Assembly (NCBI GenBank): GCA_021816695.1
Contig: JAKAXE010000003.1
Coordinates: forward strand, 1,573-65,572
Origin: a bacterium
GTDB lineage: Bacteria > Chloroflexota > Dormibacteria > Aeolococcales > Bog-877
DNA: 64,000 nucleotides
Reading direction: 5' to 3'
The notes under the pieces were generated by a model, which was not told the DNA's origin, did no database searches, and saw only the letters and a list, made by a program, of their open reading frames with translations. Shown one piece after another: positions 44,855 to 52,753 of the stretch. Made by a program: the position numbers and the translations under genes. Position 1 is the stretch's first letter. Each line of letters starts with the position of its first letter.

Positions 44855-45880
44855 TCAGCCAAGGCCAGCCTCCTGAACCTGCTGCTGGTGCTGCGCTGCG
44901 GTGACGGCGAAGAGCATCTTGCCGTTGGGCAGTGAGACGAAGTACAGGTAGTCACTCTGGGTTGGGTGGAGCACGGCGTCCACGGCCCCCACCCCGGGGC
45001 TGTCTATCGGCCCCGGGGGCAGGCCCTGGTGGAGGTAGGTGTTGTAGGGCGAGGGGAACTGGGTGCTGAACTTCGCACCGGACTGGCCGGCGCGCGCCAT
45101 CGCGTACAGGATCGTCACGTCACTCTGGAGCGGCATGCCCAGGCGCAGCCGGTTCAGGAACACTCCGGCGACGAGCGCCCGGTCCTGGCTGGTGGTGGCC
45201 TCGGCGGAGACGATCGAGGCCAGGGTGAGGGCCTGATAGGGCGTGAGGCCGATCCGGCTCGCCCCGGCGGACAGGGCGGGCGCCACCCGACGCTGGAAGT
45301 CCTGGAGCTGGAGGAGCAGGAATTGGTGGGGCGTGATGCGAGGGCTCACCTCATAGGTGTCCCCGAAGGCCATCCCCTCCCATCCCGAACCCGCGGGCGC
45401 CCCCGCCGGAGGCGAGATCCCGGAGAAGGTCCCCGAGCTCACCTGCCCCAGATAGCCGGCGGCGGAAAAGAGGCCATCCGAGGCCAGCAGGGCCGACTCC
45501 TGAAGCGCCGAGAGCCCATCCTGGACCCGCACCTCGATGGGTAGCTGGGAAGGTGGGCCCTCAAGGACCGCCACCAGCTCTGAGGGGCCCATGCCCCGGT
45601 CCAATATGAATTTGCCGGGGTGGAGCTTGAAGCCCAGCCCGCGGAGGTCCGCGTAGAGCCCGAAGAAGAATTGCGAGCGGACCACGTGGTGGCTGCCGAG
45701 GTCCTCCACCAGCCGCTGCAGGGACTCGCCGTGGCTCACAGTTATCAACACCTGCTGGCGGTGGTTGCTCTGCAGCGGCTCTAGTTCGCGCCGCCCCACC
45801 AGCGCCAGCGCTGCCAGGCCCCCCACCAGCGCCAGAAGCACAAGGATCCCCACCAGCCTCCAGGGGTGCCGCGCCATCAC
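44855..45880 (-). CDS. mltG: Endolytic transglycosylase MltG
   Basis: N-terminal TM, EG..F.DTY, LASIV..E, VF.NRL..GM.LQSD.T, SPYNTY...GLPPGPI.SPG, YLYFV. Confidence 0.93.
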   Translation of the reverse strand: MMARHPWRLVGILVLLALVGGLAALALVGRRELEPLQSNHRQQVLITVSHGESLQRLVEDLGSHHVVRSQFFFGLYADLRGLGFKLHPGKFILDRGMGPSELVAVLEGPPSQLPIEVRVQDGLSALQESALLASDGLFSAAGYLGQVSSGTFSGISPPAGAPAGSGWEGMAFGDTYEVSPRITPHQFLLLQLQDFQRRVAPALSAGASRIGLTPYQALTLASIVSAEATTSQDRALVAGVFLNRLRLGMPLQSDVTILYAMARAGQSGAKFSTQFPSPYNTYLHQGLPPGPIDSPGVGAVDAVLHPTQSDYLYFVSLPNGKMLFAVTAAQHQQQVQEAGLG

Positions 45881-46287
45881 GGCATGGTTCTGGCCCCGGC
45901 CAGAACCCCCTGTAAAAGGAGCGCCGCCGCGACCCGGTCTCCCACCTGCCGACGGCGCTCGCGCGAGTCGCCCTGGCGGATCATCTCGCGCTCCGCCTGG
46001 CGGGAGGTGAGCCGCTCGTCGGCGAAGCGGAGGGGGAGCCTGGTGGCCGCCGCCAAAAGGGCTCCCAAGCGGCGGGCCTCGGCCGCCTCCGGTCCCTCGG
46101 ACCCGTCCATCCGAAGTGGCAACCCCATCACCAGCTCTCCGACCTGGTTCTCGCAGGCCACCTCCACCAACCGGCGCACCAAGTCCTGGTCGCTCTTCCT
46201 GTTGATGGTCACGTGAGGCAGGGCGATAGTCCTGGTCTCATCACTCAGTGCCACCCCGAAACGGGCGGTACCGGGGTCGAGCGCCAT
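45877..46287 (-). CDS. ruvX: RuvX/YqgF pre-16S rRNA nuclease
   Basis: LD.G..R.GVA.SD, GLP..MDG, DER.TS, D..AA..LLQ. Confidence 0.92.
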   Translation of the reverse strand: MALDPGTARFGVALSDETRTIALPHVTINRKSDQDLVRRLVEVACENQVGELVMGLPLRMDGSEGPEAAEARRLGALLAAATRLPLRFADERLTSRQAEREMIRQGDSRERRRQVGDRVAAALLLQGVLAGARTMP

Positions 46288-46326: not shown

Positions 46327-48048
46327 CTAGGCCCTCAGCGAGACCCGTTCGATCTGGATCCGTCCGGAGAGGAGCGGGAGCCAGGGAAGCGAGAACGGGG
46401 ATTGATGGATGGTCACCGAACTGGCTCCGGGCAGCTGGGCCAGAAGGTAGGTTCTGGCGCTGCCCGGGTTCATGAACGTGACCCGGGTGCGGTATGGCGC
46501 GAGATCCACCCTGGGCGCCCAGTACCCGACGGCGTTGGAGCTCAGGGTCAAAGTCCCGCCCGGGCCCGCGGCCACGACCACGATGGTGCCGAGGTTGGGG
46601 TGGGCGAGGAGCTCACCATCCGTGGGGACCTTGGACTTCAAGTCCTGGAGGACGGCTGCACGGGCGGTCGAGGGGCTGTAGGCAGAGGCCGCGGCGGTCA
46701 CCGAGACCGTGAGTGTCTGGGTCTGACCGGCCTGGCCCACCGTGGGCAGGGTGGGGTTGGTGACCGTGAGCTGGATCCCGTTGCCGCTGGAGTCCTGGGC
46801 GATCACATCGTGGCCGGCCATGGTCTTGAGGGTCTTCTCCACCTGGGATGTGAGGTTGGAGTCGATCGTCTGCTGCTGTTGCTGTGCTGAGGAGATGTCG
46901 GAGGAGGTGAACACCTGCTGGGTCTTGGAATCCTGGCCCCCACTCATGGCCGAGGGGTTAGCGAGGCTGAACGAGAAGGGGAAACTGCCGGAGAACGGCG
47001 GACAGATCCCATCTATGCATGCGGTCGAGCTGGCGTTTGTCCAATTCCACTGCTGTCCCGCACCAACGTTGCCTTGGGAGCCGAGGCTGTTGGAGTCAGC
47101 CTGCACAGGGAGGGGGGGTGTGGAAGTCTGGCTCGAAGCGCCCTGCCCACCTTGGCAGTGCTGAACGATGTATGTCCCGCTAGCACCGGAGGAGGTGGGC
47201 GTGAAGCCAACATTTCCAGATCCCCCGGAGACCTGGAATTCCGCTCCCGATCCTGCAAAGGAGAGGCTAATCTGACCGCCTCCCCCTCCGCCGCCCGTGT
47301 AGCAGAGGTAGAGGCTGCCGGTCGCCGGGGTGGGCGGCAGGACCTGGGTCCCGCTGGGGCTCACTGTGAAGGTCTGGGTGGCCGCTGGGGTGAGCAGGGC
47401 CTCGGTGGGGATCACGTCCAGGACCCCGGACGACTGTCCACTGAGGGTGCCCTGGATGGTCACGCTGTCGTTGATCCGGTGGGACTGCACTCCGACCAGG
47501 ATCGTGGCCGAGGGGAGCAGGAACAAGACGGCCAGCACCCCGATCACGAAAACCGCGGCCCCGGACCCGACCATCCAGTTCCGGCCCCGAGGGGAATGCC
47601 ACCAGGAGCTCCAGCGGCTCTGCCCTGAGGGCTCCTCCGGCCTGGCCACCAGCTGGGAAGGGGTGCGCCGTACCAGCCCCCTGTTCGGCGATGGGGCCGG
47701 GGGAGCCTCCGGAGGCGCGGCCGCCAGCGCCGTCCCCGCGGCCACCGCGGCCGCCGTCGGCGCCGACCGCAGGGATACACCCTGCTCCAGCTGCGAGAGG
47801 GTGGTGAAGGTGGGGAATCCAGCCCGGATAGCCAGGGCCTGGACCTGGGCGTCCCCGCTCACGATCGAGACGCGCTTCTGGAAGCCCCGGGTGTACTGGA
47901 GAAGGAGCTGCAGGTCCAGCGAAGACCGCAACGCCCGTCCGTCCGGGGGAACCACGAACACCAGGTCCCGGTCGCCCTCGGCGCGGCGGATCCGGTCCAC
48001 GAGGTCGGTGATCTCGTCGGTGGGCTCGACGTAGAGCAGCTTCGACAT
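46327..48048 (-). CDS. Single-pass membrane protein with extracytoplasmic baseplate-J/gp47-like barrel
   Basis: ~95-aa N-terminal alpha/beta domain, Pro/Ala linker, one TM, then PSATI, V.A...G..GNV.AG, N..AMSGG.D patterns recalled from baseplate-J-like proteins. Confidence 0.65.
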   Translation of the reverse strand: MSKLLYVEPTDEITDLVDRIRRAEGDRDLVFVVPPDGRALRSSLDLQLLLQYTRGFQKRVSIVSGDAQVQALAIRAGFPTFTTLSQLEQGVSLRSAPTAAAVAAGTALAAAPPEAPPAPSPNRGLVRRTPSQLVARPEEPSGQSRWSSWWHSPRGRNWMVGSGAAVFVIGVLAVLFLLPSATILVGVQSHRINDSVTIQGTLSGQSSGVLDVIPTEALLTPAATQTFTVSPSGTQVLPPTPATGSLYLCYTGGGGGGGQISLSFAGSGAEFQVSGGSGNVGFTPTSSGASGTYIVQHCQGGQGASSQTSTPPLPVQADSNSLGSQGNVGAGQQWNWTNASSTACIDGICPPFSGSFPFSFSLANPSAMSGGQDSKTQQVFTSSDISSAQQQQQTIDSNLTSQVEKTLKTMAGHDVIAQDSSGNGIQLTVTNPTLPTVGQAGQTQTLTVSVTAAASAYSPSTARAAVLQDLKSKVPTDGELLAHPNLGTIVVVAAGPGGTLTLSSNAVGYWAPRVDLAPYRTRVTFMNPGSARTYLLAQLPGASSVTIHQSPFSLPWLPLLSGRIQIERVSLRA

Positions 48049-48109
48049 CTGGTTCAGTGCCTCGTCGGCATCCGCCTACCGAGCCAGGCGGCTGCGCCGA
48101 TGTGCTGGC

Positions 48110-49378
48110 TCATCGGCGGATCAACCCCGTCACCCGCTGGACCATCTCCTCCCACGTCGGCCCGGGAGGCGGAGGCGCCTCGATCTCCGCCGCCGCCTGA
48201 TAGGCGAGCCCCATGGGGGTGACGTCGGCCGGTCCCTGCAGCAACCCGGTGGTGTCGTGGACCGCGGGGAGCTCCTCCGCAGAGAGACGGGAGAAGCGCG
48301 GCGGTTGCAGGAAGGGGAGGTAATCGGTCCACCGCAGCACGGAGAGCTGCTCCAGGATCTCGGGAAGATAGGAACCACCCCCGAACAAGCGCACCTGACC
48401 GGGAAGTGGTTGGCCCTTGGCAAGGTCGTGGAGCACCAGCGCCACGCCCTGTGCCAGCACCTCCGCGGACTCCCCCATCGCCCGCCGCACCCTGGCCTGC
48501 TCGTCCCCTCCGAGAAGGCCCGCGGTGTGGCGCAGCTTCAAGCTCTCGGCCAGCGGCAGGGTGAGATCCAGGTCGTGGGCGAGCTTGCGGGTGAAGGCCC
48601 GCCCGCCGAGCTCGAACATCCGGGCGGACTCCAGGACCCCTCCCCGCACCAGGGTCACCGTGGTGGTCCGGGCACCGATGTCGACCAGGACGGCACCCTG
48701 CTCTACCACCTGCGGAGTCGAGGCCAGCCGGGCGGCGGCGTAGGGTTCGGCGACCGTCTCCAAGAGCTCCAGGTCCAGCGCCTGGGCGATCTCCTCCACG
48801 GCCGCCACGTGCTGCTCGGTGGTGAAGGTGTTGAAGACGGTCAGCTCCAGCTTCTGCCCCTGGAAGCGCAGCGGATCGACCACCGCCTGTCCATCGACCT
48901 TGGCGGCGGTGATCGATGAGTGCACCAGACGGAGCTGCTCGCCCCCGTAGGTGGCCTCCTCCTGAAGTCTGCCCTGGGCCTCCCGCAGGGCACGGCGCTG
49001 GGTCGACTCCACCAGCTCCTCCAGCTCCCGCTTGGAGACCCGCTCCTGAGCCCGACCTCGGACCTTGGACCCCTGGGTGGTCACCACTCGCACCTGGGAT
49101 CCTCCGATGCCCATCACCAGCCTCGTGGGGATGACCTCGGCCATGTCCTCGGCCGCCTCCAGGGCGGCGTGACAGCCCTCCACCACCGACTCCAAATCCG
49201 GTGGTGCCGCCGGGTCCAGCTCCCCCGGGCCCTGCTCGGCCCGGCCAACCCCCAGGACGATCGCCTCCCCGGCCTCCTTCTTCACCACCAGGGCCTTGAT
49301 CACCTGGGTGCCCACGTCCAGGGCGGTGACGTGGTAGCGCTGCTGGCGGCGAGCGGTGGGCGCGGACGACGGCGGCAT
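48110..49378 (-). CDS. FtsA-family actin-like ATPase (paralogue outside the dcw cluster)
   Basis: LDVGT, 1C-like VDG..V.DP...G..LE, EPYAAA, VDIGARTT, GG..FT..LA, AE.LK, GGGS.L; amphipathic C-terminal WEEMVQRVTGLIRR. Confidence 0.85.
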   Translation of the reverse strand: MPPSSAPTARRQQRYHVTALDVGTQVIKALVVKKEAGEAIVLGVGRAEQGPGELDPAAPPDLESVVEGCHAALEAAEDMAEVIPTRLVMGIGGSQVRVVTTQGSKVRGRAQERVSKRELEELVESTQRRALREAQGRLQEEATYGGEQLRLVHSSITAAKVDGQAVVDPLRFQGQKLELTVFNTFTTEQHVAAVEEIAQALDLELLETVAEPYAAARLASTPQVVEQGAVLVDIGARTTTVTLVRGGVLESARMFELGGRAFTRKLAHDLDLTLPLAESLKLRHTAGLLGGDEQARVRRAMGESAEVLAQGVALVLHDLAKGQPLPGQVRLFGGGSYLPEILEQLSVLRWTDYLPFLQPPRFSRLSAEELPAVHDTTGLLQGPADVTPMGLAYQAAAEIEAPPPPGPTWEEMVQRVTGLIRR

Positions 49379-49379
49379 C

Positions 49380-51926
49380 TCAGGCTTCCTCCGGGAGCTT
49401 TTCCAGGATGTTACGCAACTCCCGAAGGGCGGCGGCGTGCTCACCCTCTGGCAGGGTGCCCTGACCGAGCTCGGGCCTCCCACCACCGGCACCTCCGAGC
49501 GCCGAGCAAACCATCTTGGCCAGCTCACCGGCGGCCAGACCCCGGCCGGTCAGCTGGGGCCCCAGCAGAATCAGCAGAGTCCCGCCGGCCAGGACCACCG
49601 CGCTCCCACTGGGAGCCCGCTCCGCCAGCCGCTCGCCCAGCCGACGCATCTCAGCGCGCTCCATCGGTAACGGTGAGTCGTGCGCCGGCAACTCGCCCCC
49701 CGGGAAGGGCAGGGAGATATCCCCGCCTCCGCGGCCCTGGGAGGCCTCCCGCAGTGCCCGCTCCAGCCCCCTCGCGCGGTCGCGCAGGGTCGCCACCCGG
49801 CCGGGAACCTCGGCAGGCGGGCTGCCCAGGGCGAGAGCGGTCTGATGGAGCAGCTCCCGCTGGGCCTCCCACCACCGCTCGGCAGCCGGGCCAGCTCGGA
49901 GTTCGAGGCGGCGCAGGCCCTGCCCCACGCTTCTCTCCCCGGTGAGCACGACCGCCCCCAGCTGACCGCTGGCGGCGACGTGGGTGCCACCGCACAGCTC
50001 CCGGGAGAATCCCAGGAAGCTGACCACCCGGACCGGCTCCCGGTAGGTCTCCCCCTCGAGGGCGATGGCCCCGCTGCTCCTGGCCTCCTCCAGGGTGAGC
50101 AGCTCCACCCGCCGGGGCAGGTCCCGCCGGACAGCGTCGTTTACCCGCCTCTCCACCTGCAACACCTCCTCCGGGGTGAGCGGCCGGGACCAGCTGAAGT
50201 CGAAGGTGGCGTGGTCGGGGGTCACCAGCGACCCGCGCTGGGCCACCTCGGGACCAAGCACCAGCCTCAGCGCGGCGTTGACCAGGTGGGTGGCGGAGTG
50301 GTGCGCGGCACAGCCCAGGCGGTGGTCCGGGTCAACCTCAGCCCGGACCGCCAGCCCCGGCTTCAGCTGCCCTGAGGTGACCAGGCAGCTGAGCAGCTGA
50401 GACCGCTGCCCCCCAGGCTGGGTGTCCTCGACCTCCGCCGAGCCCCCGGTCCAGGTCAGCCGGCCTCGGTCTCCCACCTGCCCTCCGCCCTCGGGGTAGA
50501 AAGGGCTCCGATCCAGGACCACTGCTCCCCTCTCCCCCTGGTCCAGACCCTCCACTGGGCGTCCCCCGGAGAGCACCAGCTCCACTCGAGCTTCTACCTC
50601 CAGCTGCTCGTAGCCCACGAACTCGCTGGCTGGAAGGGCCGGCAGGTCGGTTCCCACGGGCCCCCGCCCCCGCTGGCGCTGCTCCTCCAGGAGCCGCTCG
50701 AAGCCCACGGTGTCGACCTCCAGCCCGCGCGAAGCCGCCAGGTCTCGGGTCAACTCGATGGGGAAGCCGAAAGTGTCGTGGAGGCGGAAGGCATCTTCCG
50801 CCGTGATCCCGGACCCCTCGGCCGCCAAGCGCAGGAACAGCCCCAGACCCCGATCGAGCACCTCGGCGAACCTGGCCTCCTCCTCAAGGAGCACTGACTC
50901 GATCTCGCCCACCTGCCCCAGGAGCTGGGGCATGGGACCCGCCAGGATCTGAGCCACCACCCGAGCGGCCGGCGCCAGCCCGCCGGTCAACCCCAGGGCC
51001 TGGGCGCTCACCAAAGCTCGGCGGACGAGGCGGCGGAGGACGTACCCCCGGCCCTCGTTCGAGGGCCGCACCCCGTCGGAGACCAGGGCGCAGGCTCCGC
51101 GCGCGTGGTCGGCGAGGATCCACAAGTGGCGGCGTCCCGCGCCCTCTCCCAGCTGATCCCGGGCCTCAGATCTACTGCGGAAGTCCTGCACCAGGGGTGA
51201 GAAGAGGTCGGTGTCGAAGATGGATGACTTCCCCTGCACCACCCGGGTTATGCGTTCCAGCCCCATCCCGGTATCCACCCCAGGTCGGGGCAGGGGAACT
51301 GATGAGCCGTCTGGCAGGCGCTCGGAGTCCATGAACACGAGGTTCCAGATCTCCAGGTAGCGATCGCCCCGTCCCGGGGATTCCTGCGGGGCGCTGCCGA
51401 ATTCCGGGCCGAGGTCGTAGTAGATCTCGCTGTCAACCCCGAAGGGGCCAGTCGGCCCCGCCTGCCAGTAGTTGTCCTCCAGGGCGACGATCCGTTCCCG
51501 GCCCACCCCGGCCACCTCTCGCCACAGGCGCTCCGACAGCTCATCCGAGGGGTGGATGCTGAAGTGCAGCCGATCGGGGTCGAGTCCCATCTCCGCCGTC
51601 AGGAACTGGTAGGCGTAGCGGATCGCCTCCTCCTTGAAATAGGACCCGAAGCTGAAGTTACCGAGCATCTCGAAGAAGGTGTCGTGCCGGGTGCTGTTGC
51701 CCACCTCCTCGATGTCCACCGCCCGGAAGGCTCGTTGGCAGGAGGTGAGCCGGGGCGCCGGTGGTTGCTTTCGCCCCAGGAAGTAAGGCTTGAAGGGCAC
51801 CATGCCGGCGCCCACCAGGAGCAGGCTGGGATCGTCCTCCGGCACCAGCGAGGCGCTGGGCACCAGGAGGTGGTCCCGAGCCTGGAAGTACTCTAAAAAA
51901 TGCGTGCGGATCTGCGAACTGAGCAA
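49380..51926 (-). CDS. alaS: Alanine--tRNA ligase
   Basis: AGMVPFK, TFFEMLGNFSFG.YFK, EIWNLVF, DTGMGLER, DH.R, HSATHL, ELCGGTHV, GGGG; start TTG 51926 estimated. Confidence 0.96.
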   Translation of the reverse strand: MLSSQIRTHFLEYFQARDHLLVPSASLVPEDDPSLLLVGAGMVPFKPYFLGRKQPPAPRLTSCQRAFRAVDIEEVGNSTRHDTFFEMLGNFSFGSYFKEEAIRYAYQFLTAEMGLDPDRLHFSIHPSDELSERLWREVAGVGRERIVALEDNYWQAGPTGPFGVDSEIYYDLGPEFGSAPQESPGRGDRYLEIWNLVFMDSERLPDGSSVPLPRPGVDTGMGLERITRVVQGKSSIFDTDLFSPLVQDFRSRSEARDQLGEGAGRRHLWILADHARGACALVSDGVRPSNEGRGYVLRRLVRRALVSAQALGLTGGLAPAARVVAQILAGPMPQLLGQVGEIESVLLEEEARFAEVLDRGLGLFLRLAAEGSGITAEDAFRLHDTFGFPIELTRDLAASRGLEVDTVGFERLLEEQRQRGRGPVGTDLPALPASEFVGYEQLEVEARVELVLSGGRPVEGLDQGERGAVVLDRSPFYPEGGGQVGDRGRLTWTGGSAEVEDTQPGGQRSQLLSCLVTSGQLKPGLAVRAEVDPDHRLGCAAHHSATHLVNAALRLVLGPEVAQRGSLVTPDHATFDFSWSRPLTPEEVLQVERRVNDAVRRDLPRRVELLTLEEARSSGAIALEGETYREPVRVVSFLGFSRELCGGTHVAASGQLGAVVLTGERSVGQGLRRLELRAGPAAERWWEAQRELLHQTALALGSPPAEVPGRVATLRDRARGLERALREASQGRGGGDISLPFPGGELPAHDSPLPMERAEMRRLGERLAERAPSGSAVVLAGGTLLILLGPQLTGRGLAAGELAKMVCSALGGAGGGRPELGQGTLPEGEHAAALRELRNILEKLPEEA

Positions 51927-51976
51927 GTGGTCCCCATCCCTGGCAGGTCGGCTGGATTCTAACAGCCACCCGGGGC

Positions 51977-52753
51977 TCAACCCTCGAGGGGCATCTCCTG
52001 CCGCAGGCGGTCGAGGGCCGCCCGCTGCAGTCGGCTGACGTGCATCTGGCTGATCCCCAGGCGCCGGGCCACCTCGGTCTGCGGCAACTGGTCCACGAAG
52101 CGGAGGATCATGATCTCCTGCTCGCGAGGGGTCAGGTGGCGCAGCGCGGTCCCCAGGACGTTCTGGAGCTCTATCCGGTCCAGGTTCTGGTCCTCGACGC
52201 CCACCCGGTCGCCGACCTCCTGGTCCTCATCCGCCCCCTGGGCTGGCGCATCCAGGGAGACGGCACGGTGGGCCGGTCCCGCCTCCAGCGCCTGGAGCAC
52301 CTCGTCCGGCTCCAGCTCCAGCTCTTTGGCGATCTCCGCCACCGTGGGGATGCGGCCAAGCCGCTGCGCCATCTCCTGCTGCACCCGGACCACCTTGGCG
52401 TAGGTCTCCTGAAGACGACGAGGAACCCTGACCGCCCAGCTCTTGTCGCGGAAGTAGCGCTTAATCTCCCCCAAGATGGTGGGGGTGGCGAAGGTGGTGA
52501 ACTCCAACCCGAGGCTGGGGTCGAACCGCTCAATGGCCGAGATCAGCCCCAGGAAGCCCACCTGCTCCAGGTCCTCCAGCGGCTCGCCACGGCCAGCGAA
52601 GCGGCGGGCCAGGGAGCGCACCAGCGCCTGGTACTGGTCCACCAGCCGCTCCCGAACCTCAGGAGTGTGGTGGAGGCGGTAATCCTCGAAGAGGCGGTGC
52701 TGCAGGTCGCGGTCGTAGCGGGGGGGGCTGCTGCGGAACCCCGCCTCGGTCAC
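51977..52753 (-). CDS. SigB/SigF/SigG-family RNA polymerase sigma factor
   Basis: LARRF..RGE..EDL.QVG..GL..AI.RFDP, FATPTI.GEIKRYFRD..W..RVPRR, ISQMHVSRL. Confidence 0.93.
   Translation of the reverse strand: MTEAGFRSSPPRYDRDLQHRLFEDYRLHHTPEVRERLVDQYQALVRSLARRFAGRGEPLEDLEQVGFLGLISAIERFDPSLGLEFTTFATPTILGEIKRYFRDKSWAVRVPRRLQETYAKVVRVQQEMAQRLGRIPTVAEIAKELELEPDEVLQALEAGPAHRAVSLDAPAQGADEDQEVGDRVGVEDQNLDRIELQNVLGTALRHLTPREQEIMILRFVDQLPQTEVARRLGISQMHVSRLQRAALDRLRQEMPLEG

Follow-up and report, generated by a model that had tools for sequence, protein, structure and literature searches.

Conserved adjacency of genes for an FtsA paralogue and a membrane-anchored partner in Chloroflexota and Patescibacteria points to a probable, unstudied cell-envelope scaffold

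RESULTS

The subject of this study is a pair of adjacent genes in a 64,000-nucleotide stretch of DNA (contig JAKAXE010000003.1 of assembly GCA_021816695.1) from a bacterium of the Dormibacteria, the genome of which is 2.49 Mb in size and 89% complete. We refer to this whole 64-kb stretch as the window, and all coordinates are those of the window. Both genes lie on the minus strand. The first (48110..49378; ATG at 49378, stop codon at 48110-48112) encodes FtsAL, an FtsA-family actin-fold protein of 422 amino acids (aa) that is a paralogue of the divisome protein FtsA. The second (46327..48048; ATG at 48048, stop codon at 46327-46329) encodes a single-pass membrane protein of 573 aa, here called the partner, and a spacer of 61 nucleotides (nt) separates the two (48049..48109). 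The coordinates, the gap, and the length of the partner agree with a preliminary description of this locus, which had also noted the FtsA hallmarks of the first protein, its status as an orphan paralogue, the absence of ftsZ and of phage genes nearby, and the bitopic nature of the second protein; all of these points were confirmed in the analysis described here.

The motifs that characterize FtsA can be read in the translation of FtsAL (ALDVGT, KVDGQAVVDP, EPYAAA, DIGARTTT, and GGGS). The protein ends in a basic amphipathic tail, WEEMVQRVTGLIRR (residues 409-422, 48113..48154, minus strand), which is a candidate membrane-targeting helix: its helical hydrophobic moment is 0.71, a value that 2.1% of shuffled sequences get to, and a comparable tail (RRVxxAMKV) is found across the family in the alignment. 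In Pfam, FtsAL passes the cut-off of PF14450 FtsA (43.2 bits, cut-off 31.8), and the match to SHS2_FTSA is weak (E 0.083). The best NCBIfam model is TIGR01174 ftsA (94.5 bits, E 6.9e-27), with an alignment that spans positions 2-255 and a score under the equivalog cut-off of 175.85. The scores for the other actin-fold families are 28.3 bits for EutJ, 27.9 bits for the PilM model TIGR01175 (E 1.1e-6, cut-off 133 not reached), and 19.3 bits for MreB (E 4.7e-4). A sequence search of the PDB gave FtsA chains on top (7q6f, E 2.8e-13; 7q6d and 7q6g), with the PilM chain 2ych at E 1.4e-4. Public databases annotate proteins of this type as "cell division FtsA domain-containing protein."

On contig C82, the same genome carries a canonical ftsA that scores 294.4 bits, which exceeds the cut-off, and is immediately followed by ftsZ; given this separate ftsA-ftsZ, FtsAL is a true extra paralogue. 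The FtsAL gene lies outside the dcw cluster, not beside ftsZ, and sits between alaS and ruvX. The genome also has an MreB-like gene, and no PilM match was found in it. All five other carrier genomes that were compared (two Chloroflexota, two Saccharimonadia, and one labelled Dormiibacterota) have both a canonical FtsA (333 to 422 bits) and an FtsAL (98 to 110 bits), and the two Saccharimonadia genomes each have two true PilM genes besides. In a maximum likelihood tree (IQ-TREE) of 29 sequences from the same genomes, the proteins fall into four clades, namely MreB, PilM (100/100), FtsA (95/96), and FtsAL (99/98). FtsAL is thus an FtsA paralogue with its own clade beside FtsA and PilM. Within that clade the Saccharimonadia branch off first, followed by the Dormibacteria and other Chloroflexota; this internal branching matches the lineages, as expected under vertical descent.

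The pair is conserved. A scan with one genome per species gave 300 relatives, and the best 80 loci were retained as named loci; their labels are Dormiibacterota, Chloroflexota (Limnocylindria and others), Saccharimonadia, and Berkelbacteria. With a hidden Markov model (HMM) of the FtsAL family, FtsAL was found directly upstream of the partner and on the same strand in 79 of these 80 loci, at scores of 152 to 729 bits versus 85 bits for the canonical FtsA of the source genome. The 80th locus has 291 nt upstream only and hence lies outside the adjacency count. The partner is also directly downstream of FtsAL in 20/20 further Patescibacteria loci, picked over the score range, and in 10/10 further Chloroflexota loci, so that none of the 109 testable loci departs from the arrangement. 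Strict adjacency extends over two phyla, in line with the recurrence in Chloroflexota and Patescibacteria that had been mentioned in the preliminary description, and the inheritance of the pair looks vertical. Some Dormibacteria-type copies are filed under odd labels (L011, L017, L019, and L026; P0029, P0037, P0038, P0136, P0189, and P0220), which include Nanopelagicaceae, Verrucomicrobiia, a Micrarchaeia archaeon, Angelobacter, Acidoferrales, Saccharimonadales, and Binatia; the labels of those public records look mistaken.

The structure of the partner was modelled with AlphaFold2, and all of its parts are encoded on the minus strand. An alpha/beta domain at the N terminus (residues 1-95, 47764..48048), predicted to be cytoplasmic, has a predicted local distance difference test (pLDDT) score of about 82 to 91. 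It is followed by a variable linker rich in Ala and Pro (residues 96-153, 47590..47763), which appears disordered (pLDDT <50) and aligns poorly. The transmembrane helix (residues 154-177, 47518..47589) is supported by a helix in the model and by a hydrophobic stretch in the translation. The rest of the protein is the ectodomain (residues 178-573, 46330..47517), which is beta-rich, with two alpha/beta domains and a helix of 30 residues; a separate model of it, based on 103 sequences, reached a pLDDT of 94.9 and a predicted template modelling score of 0.76. The N-domain is the best-conserved region of the protein: even across phyla, the alignment shows no variation at D11, E12, I13, T14, R21, L48, and L49. 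The partner of the window has no match in Pfam, NCBIfam, PHROG, or PADLOC, and FtsAL has no PADLOC match either. A partner profile built from 30 relatives and searched against 1.84 billion representative proteins gave 6,718 matches at E<=1e-3 and 991 at E<=1e-30, full length in most. The partner is a member of a very large family, the full architecture of which is without a name; public annotations of such proteins read "hypothetical" or "baseplate J/gp47 family protein." In Chloroflexota with large genomes (4.8 to 7.2 Mb) the partner is about 900 aa long, with about 300 extra residues between the N-domain and the membrane helix (L135:2176-4887, L136:6476-9193, L137:6480-9161, and L139:1971-4889).

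In the preliminary description, the ectodomain was said to be baseplate-J-like. This stands for its relatives and for local comparisons of fold; the partner of the window itself matched no Pfam, NCBIfam, or PHROG model. PF04865 was passed by the relative P0201 (37.5 bits), by 5 of 10 sampled representatives, and by 7 of 8 of the fused forms described below, with only profile positions of about 13 to 115 of 255 being matched. The PF04865 stretches of five relatives fall on residues of about 240 to 377 of the partner (46918..47331, minus strand), which delimits a Baseplate-J-like subdomain with a conserved G-x-x-G-N-V motif. PHROG_6 ("baseplate wedge subunit") was matched by 3/3 relatives, one relative carries the NCBI name "baseplate J/gp47 family protein," and in a protein atlas the clusters that lie nearest hold Baseplate_J proteins of Chloroflexota and Saccharimonadota. 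With the whole-protein model, local Foldseek alignments were obtained with the phage Mu baseplate protein 9ki1_O (141 columns, probability 1.00) and with 8fqc_F1 of phage Milano (147 columns, probability 0.98), and nothing in the PDB was found at E<=1e-3. With the ectodomain model, a "Baseplate J-like protein" of a Lactobacillus phage was found in a viral library (142 columns, E 1.1e-3). These results indicate homology between ectodomain relatives and Baseplate_J, and a likeness that is real but partial, being seen via relatives and fold comparison. The term "domesticated phage-fold" of the preliminary description fits only the subdomain of about 140 residues and is overstated for the whole protein.

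The preliminary description had proposed to model the ATPase with the N-terminal 100 or so residues of the partner, and such a complex is indeed predicted. One complex prediction was made, of FtsAL with partner residues 1-100, both given as their own alignments. The score was 0.77 (0.80, 0.77, and 0.77 in three runs) versus 0.01 for the best of three controls. In calibration, 58 of 80 solved complexes came up to this mark, as did 2 of 110 mismatched pairs; these counts are only a rough guide here since own alignments were used. Among the three runs the contacts agree to 80% or more, and the pLDDT of the partner is at least 83. The interface of the partner is predicted to comprise residues 10, 12-15, 17-18, 21, 38, 41-45, 47-48, 51-52, 68, and 72, and takes in the DEIT motif and L48. 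On FtsAL it would comprise residues 253, 255-257, 260-261, 264-265, 268, 303-304, 307-308, 310-311, and 314-315, plus 94 and 140-143. Most of these lie in a docking segment (residues 253-315, 48434..48622, minus strand) that follows phosphate-2 and is 2B-like by position; we take this label from FtsA structures, 2B being where FtsA holds the FtsZ tail. The family alignment places the invariant FtsAL columns G259, F262, T263, V307, G311, and L314 in the predicted interface region, so that the predicted interface includes invariant residues on both proteins. Since the partner profile had no match among PDB sequences at E<=10, the prediction is unlikely to be a recall of a known complex. The partner N-domain is thus predicted to dock on the 2B-like part of FtsAL.

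In some Patescibacteria the two genes are replaced by one. We chose eight loci (L141-L148) for their long open frames, and in 8/8 of them a single gene of 699 to 804 aa lies between alaS and ruvX, with mltG next in 7 (e.g., L141:3013-5205). The C-terminal part of the product consists of a transmembrane helix and the ectodomain, and hhalign matches its N-terminal part to the FtsAL profile (probability 97.9%, E 4.8e-13, 221 columns). Single-gene fused forms of the pair therefore exist. They are without the 1C insert, without the 2B-like segment, and without the partner N-domain, and both phosphate loops are gone. The absence of both docking modules once the two proteins are covalently joined provides an independent check on the predicted interface. 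Other routes did not reveal such proteins: in six relatives that are long or match in two stretches, no FtsA domain was recognized by Pfam, none of the collected proteins matched both the FtsAL and the partner HMM, and there were no FtsAL relatives of 740 to 2,110 aa at E<=1e-10, the last being weak evidence. The fused forms came to light in the partner-profile survey. What look like intermediate forms occur in five Patescibacteria genomes (G006, G137, G151, G186, and G203), where the FtsAL match covers profile positions of about 108 to 392 and the partner match begins after the N-domain.

The nucleotide-binding loops of FtsAL itself also deviate. The window protein retains phosphate-1, with a Q in place of the E found in most relatives, and GGGS. 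Its phosphate-2 loop (residues 233-240, 48659..48682, minus strand) reads DIGARTTT, where the family norm is D[VI]GGGTTD. Among 193 FtsAL members, 137 have the GGG..D form, 47 have GA[RK]..T/A, 8 have GAA..Q/K, and 1 has GGG..N, and the noncanonical forms (56/193) all belong to the Dormibacteria subclade of the window. The change of loop, which is fixed in that subclade, suggests altered or lost ATP handling. Given the degenerate phosphate-2 of this lineage and the missing nucleotide motifs of the fused forms, ATP turnover is probably dispensable here.

The prevalence of the pair was estimated in Patescibacteria and Chloroflexota genomes. The partner profile (E<=1e-10) matched 193 of 201 Patescibacteria genomes, and the FtsAL profile (E<=1e-20) matched 146 of 201; by row count, 128 of the 201 have an FtsAL of at least 144 bits. 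Both Patescibacteria samples take in one unpublished genome (G159), which counts for one genome per tally. The FtsAL profile matched 42 of 151 Chloroflexota genomes (at E<=1e-45) and 23 of 81 genomes of the window's own phylum, which in the genome library is the phylum of the Chloroflexota genome G001. FtsAL is present in 7/7 other genomes of the class to which the window belongs. Among named families its presence is all-or-none, except in family f13 (5/6).

The flanks of the pair consist of housekeeping genes, and no phage genes were seen among them. On the upstream side the order is hisS, aspS, a gene for a SigB/F-type sigma factor, and alaS, and downstream it is ruvX, mltG, the gene for an A24 prepilin peptidase, an HD-GYP regulator gene on the plus strand, and efp. 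The alaS gene (49380..51980, minus strand; TIGR00344, 724.7 bits) has its stop codon (49380-49382) 1 nt before the ATG of FtsAL. Downstream of the partner are ruvX (45877-46287, minus strand; TIGR00250, 88.9 bits) and mltG (44855-45880, minus strand; TIGR00247, 163.4 bits), which overlap by 4 nt. The G+C content is about 70% across the whole window, and there is no compositional break at the pair. RNA folding predicts a stable stem-loop at the spacer (48040-48120, minus strand; -35.4 kcal/mol, z -2.64, with 2/200 shuffled sequences equally stable), which covers the FtsAL stop codon and the spacer ahead of the partner start and is not followed by a U-run; it may tune the ratio of FtsAL to partner.

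The slot is conserved as well. Among the 80 named loci, 72 have alaS upstream, and ruvX and mltG are each found downstream in 70; the eight loci without alaS all end short on the upstream side. Of the 20 Patescibacteria loci, 15 have alaS upstream and 14 have ruvX downstream. The A24 peptidase gene, which in the window comes two genes downstream of the pair, after ruvX and mltG, is a neighbor in 22/80 loci, all of the Dormibacteria type (among L005-L027), and in none of the other 57. The sigma factor gene (SigB/SigF type, window 51977-52753) is located directly upstream of alaS in the window and in 20/80 loci, again all of the Dormibacteria type (the window and loci L006-L027). Two observations concern alaS itself. 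In one Patescibacteria genome, alaS and FtsAL share a single open frame of 1,013 aa with no stop between them (L119:4998-8036), which may be a real fusion or a read-through. The AlaS proteins of the Patescibacteria (L111-L130 and L141-L148) are short, about 570 to 700 aa, and match the window AlaS as far as residue 693 or so of 866, the C-terminal part being absent.

DISCUSSION

FtsAL and its partner have been kept side by side in two phyla, and we consider it fairly probable, from the sequences and the models, that both genes encode one conserved transmembrane module. Such a module would join a scaffold in the cytoplasm to something built outside the membrane, and the growth or division of the envelope is its likeliest setting. 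FtsAL would belong to an ancient lineage, the third in the FtsA/PilM group of actin-fold proteins, and would be held against the cytoplasmic side of the membrane, probably via its C-terminal amphipathic tail. Its 2B-like subdomain would grip the partner by the small cytoplasmic domain at the N terminus. With a single membrane crossing, the partner would present in the wall compartment a rigid ectodomain that is built partly on the baseplate-wedge (J/gp47) fold. In phages this fold has a role in assembly and not in catalysis. The module would be expressed from the alaS-ruvX-mltG housekeeping operon. Membrane tethering, oligomerization, and a role in the envelope are what we infer for it, and the role in envelope or division is drawn from the architecture and from mltG as a neighbor, the argument from the neighbor being a weak one. 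With nucleotide loops that are degenerate or lost, a scaffold role independent of ATP turnover fits better than a dynamic filament. The dedicated actin-like filament of the preliminary description did not emerge from our analysis, in view of the degenerate phosphate-2 in this lineage and the lost nucleotide motifs of the fused forms. The same holds for the coupling to MltG, which had come from operon position alone, while the alaS-ruvX-mltG order is itself without functional explanation.

Several points weigh against this view of the module. The envelope role leans on operon position, and as alaS, ruvX, and mltG are functionally unrelated, the slot may be uninformative. The score of the predicted complex is the model's own confidence and was obtained with own alignments. 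The tree does not settle the branching order among the FtsA, PilM, and FtsAL clades. As for the ectodomain, the partner of the window has no PF04865 match even at E<=1, no PHROG match, and no PDB-sequence match; its high-confidence ectodomain model finds nothing in the PDB with Foldseek at E<=1e-3, and in the viral library just 2 matches passed. The part shared with baseplate proteins is about 140 of the 396 ectodomain residues. Finally, FtsAL was not found in 109 of the 151 sampled Chloroflexota, so it is dispensable for many relatives, and the prevalence sampling covered Patescibacteria and Chloroflexota only. On the other hand, the findings that the preliminary description had named as speaking against its proposal did not appear: FtsAL is neither the only ftsA of the genome nor a member of the canonical FtsA clade, the two genes do co-occur elsewhere, and a similarity to baseplate J is present, in part of the extracellular region.

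As FtsA is the nearest family, one could propose that FtsAL is specific for division, as a second tether of the Z-ring that binds the C-terminal peptide of FtsZ, with the partner as a member of the late divisome, akin to FtsN, FtsQ, or DivIB, in lineages where the usual proteins are missing. FtsAL resembles FtsA (TIGR01174 and PF14450; PDB 7q6f, 7q6d, and 3wqt) in its actin fold, the 1C/SHS2-type insert, phosphate-1, EPYA, GGGS, and the amphipathic tail, it is likewise paired with a single-pass membrane protein, as FtsA is with bitopic partners such as FtsN, and mltG is in the same operon. However, FtsAL scores below the equivalog cut-off, forms a separate clade, has a degenerate phosphate-2 in this lineage, is found outside the dcw cluster, and coexists with a canonical FtsA, which is kept in every carrier genome tested. 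FtsN binds the 1C subdomain of FtsA through a short tail, whereas the FtsAL partner is predicted to use a folded domain of 95 residues on the 2B-like surface. Moreover, that surface, which is the one that holds FtsZ in FtsA, is predicted to be occupied by the partner and is deleted in the fused forms. We therefore regard a purely division-specific role as unlikely.

The actin-fold pairs of type IV filaments and secretion systems offer another comparison. An actin-fold protein in the cytoplasm, gripped by a bitopic partner through the cytoplasmic end of the latter, is what PilM/PilN and GspL have and what is predicted for our pair, and the split between two genes and one fused gene parallels that between PilM plus PilN and GspL; as in GspL, some lineages are fused, and the actin core of the fused form is without nucleotide motifs. 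The module plausibly works like this kind of platform. We consider it very unlikely that it is itself an assembly platform for a type IV filament or secretion system, in step with the downstream prepilin peptidase. The position of the A24 gene in the window and the lack of a PilM match in the source genome would agree with it, but the peptidase is a neighbor in Dormibacteria-type loci only, and the T2SSE-family ATPases of the source genome are encoded on contigs C77 and C99, away from the pair. The coupling to pilin processing that had been suggested in the preliminary description was rejected on these grounds. FtsAL also stays far below the PilM cut-off, is separate from the PilM clade, and coexists with true PilM in both Saccharimonadia genomes, and the pair has no adjacent pilNOPQ or secretion ATPase genes. 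The N-domain of the partner is globular and not a PilN-type peptide, and PilN and GspL have a ferredoxin-like fold where the partner ectodomain is baseplate-like instead. MreB and RodZ are a third case of an actin-fold protein that is bound by the small folded cytoplasmic domain of a bitopic protein with an extracytoplasmic domain. Here FtsAL differs in having an FtsA/PilM-type insert, a very low MreB score, and a separate clade in a genome that has its own MreB-like gene, and the N-domain of the partner is, in the AlphaFold2 model, not a helix-turn-helix as in RodZ.

It could also be argued that the adjacency reflects nothing but conserved operon order and that the two proteins are independent and do not bind each other, as the slot lies among functionally unrelated housekeeping genes, the order of which is conserved too. 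The adjacency in every testable locus, the fusions in all eight loci examined, and the gap between the complex score and its controls make this hardly credible. The Baseplate_J and PHROG_6 matches of the relatives could in turn suggest the remnant of a prophage, a tailocin, or a contractile injection system, or else an anti-phage defense gene. The partner does share with baseplate J, gp47, and T4 gp6 (PF04865 and PHROG_6) the subdomain of about 140 residues with the G-x-x-G-N-V motif, the homology being seen via relatives and the likeness in fold through local matches. It differs, however, in being cellular and membrane-anchored, in having a new cytoplasmic domain, and in lacking neighbors for baseplate, tube, or sheath, and the window partner itself is below the Pfam threshold. 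With housekeeping flanks free of phage genes, a fixed slot across two phyla, a gene tree that follows the lineages, and no PADLOC match for either protein, both a phage remnant and a defense gene are close to excluded.

A bolder version of the transmembrane module can be put forward, though we hold it only tentatively and find it rather doubtful. The pair, or its fused form, could be a core and near-universal envelope machine of the Patescibacteria, shared by descent with part of the Chloroflexota, in which case the insertion between alaS and ruvX would be a rare marker of common ancestry. The partner would then represent a cellular baseplate-wedge lineage that anchors a surface or wall structure to an actin-fold scaffold that is independent of nucleotides.

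We found no published description of the FtsAL/partner pair in the full-text literature, supplementary files lying outside that search. Nor were there full-text papers that join FtsA with "baseplate J" or "Southlakia epibionticum" with FtsA, or that name three of alaS, ruvX, mltG, and FtsA together. The passages of PMC10608941 that were consulted treat canonical dcw genes only.

Division (FtsA), pili and secretion (PilM/PilN and GspL), and growth of the wall (MreB/RodZ) are organized by pairs of an actin-fold protein and a single-pass partner. One more ancient branch, with a partner of a novel type, would extend this list by a machine that has yet to be studied. The partner family is present in nearly all sampled candidate phyla radiation (CPR)/Patescibacteria members, ultra-small bacteria whose cell biology is almost unknown and which keep few nonessential genes. 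The insertion between alaS and ruvX is common to Dormibacteria, other Chloroflexota, and Patescibacteria and bears on their debated kinship, and the pair may show the phage baseplate-wedge fold at work in a cell, anchored to the membrane. With the predicted interface and with fused forms that occur in nature, the idea can be tested directly. The conserved pair points to a probable, unstudied scaffold of the cell envelope.

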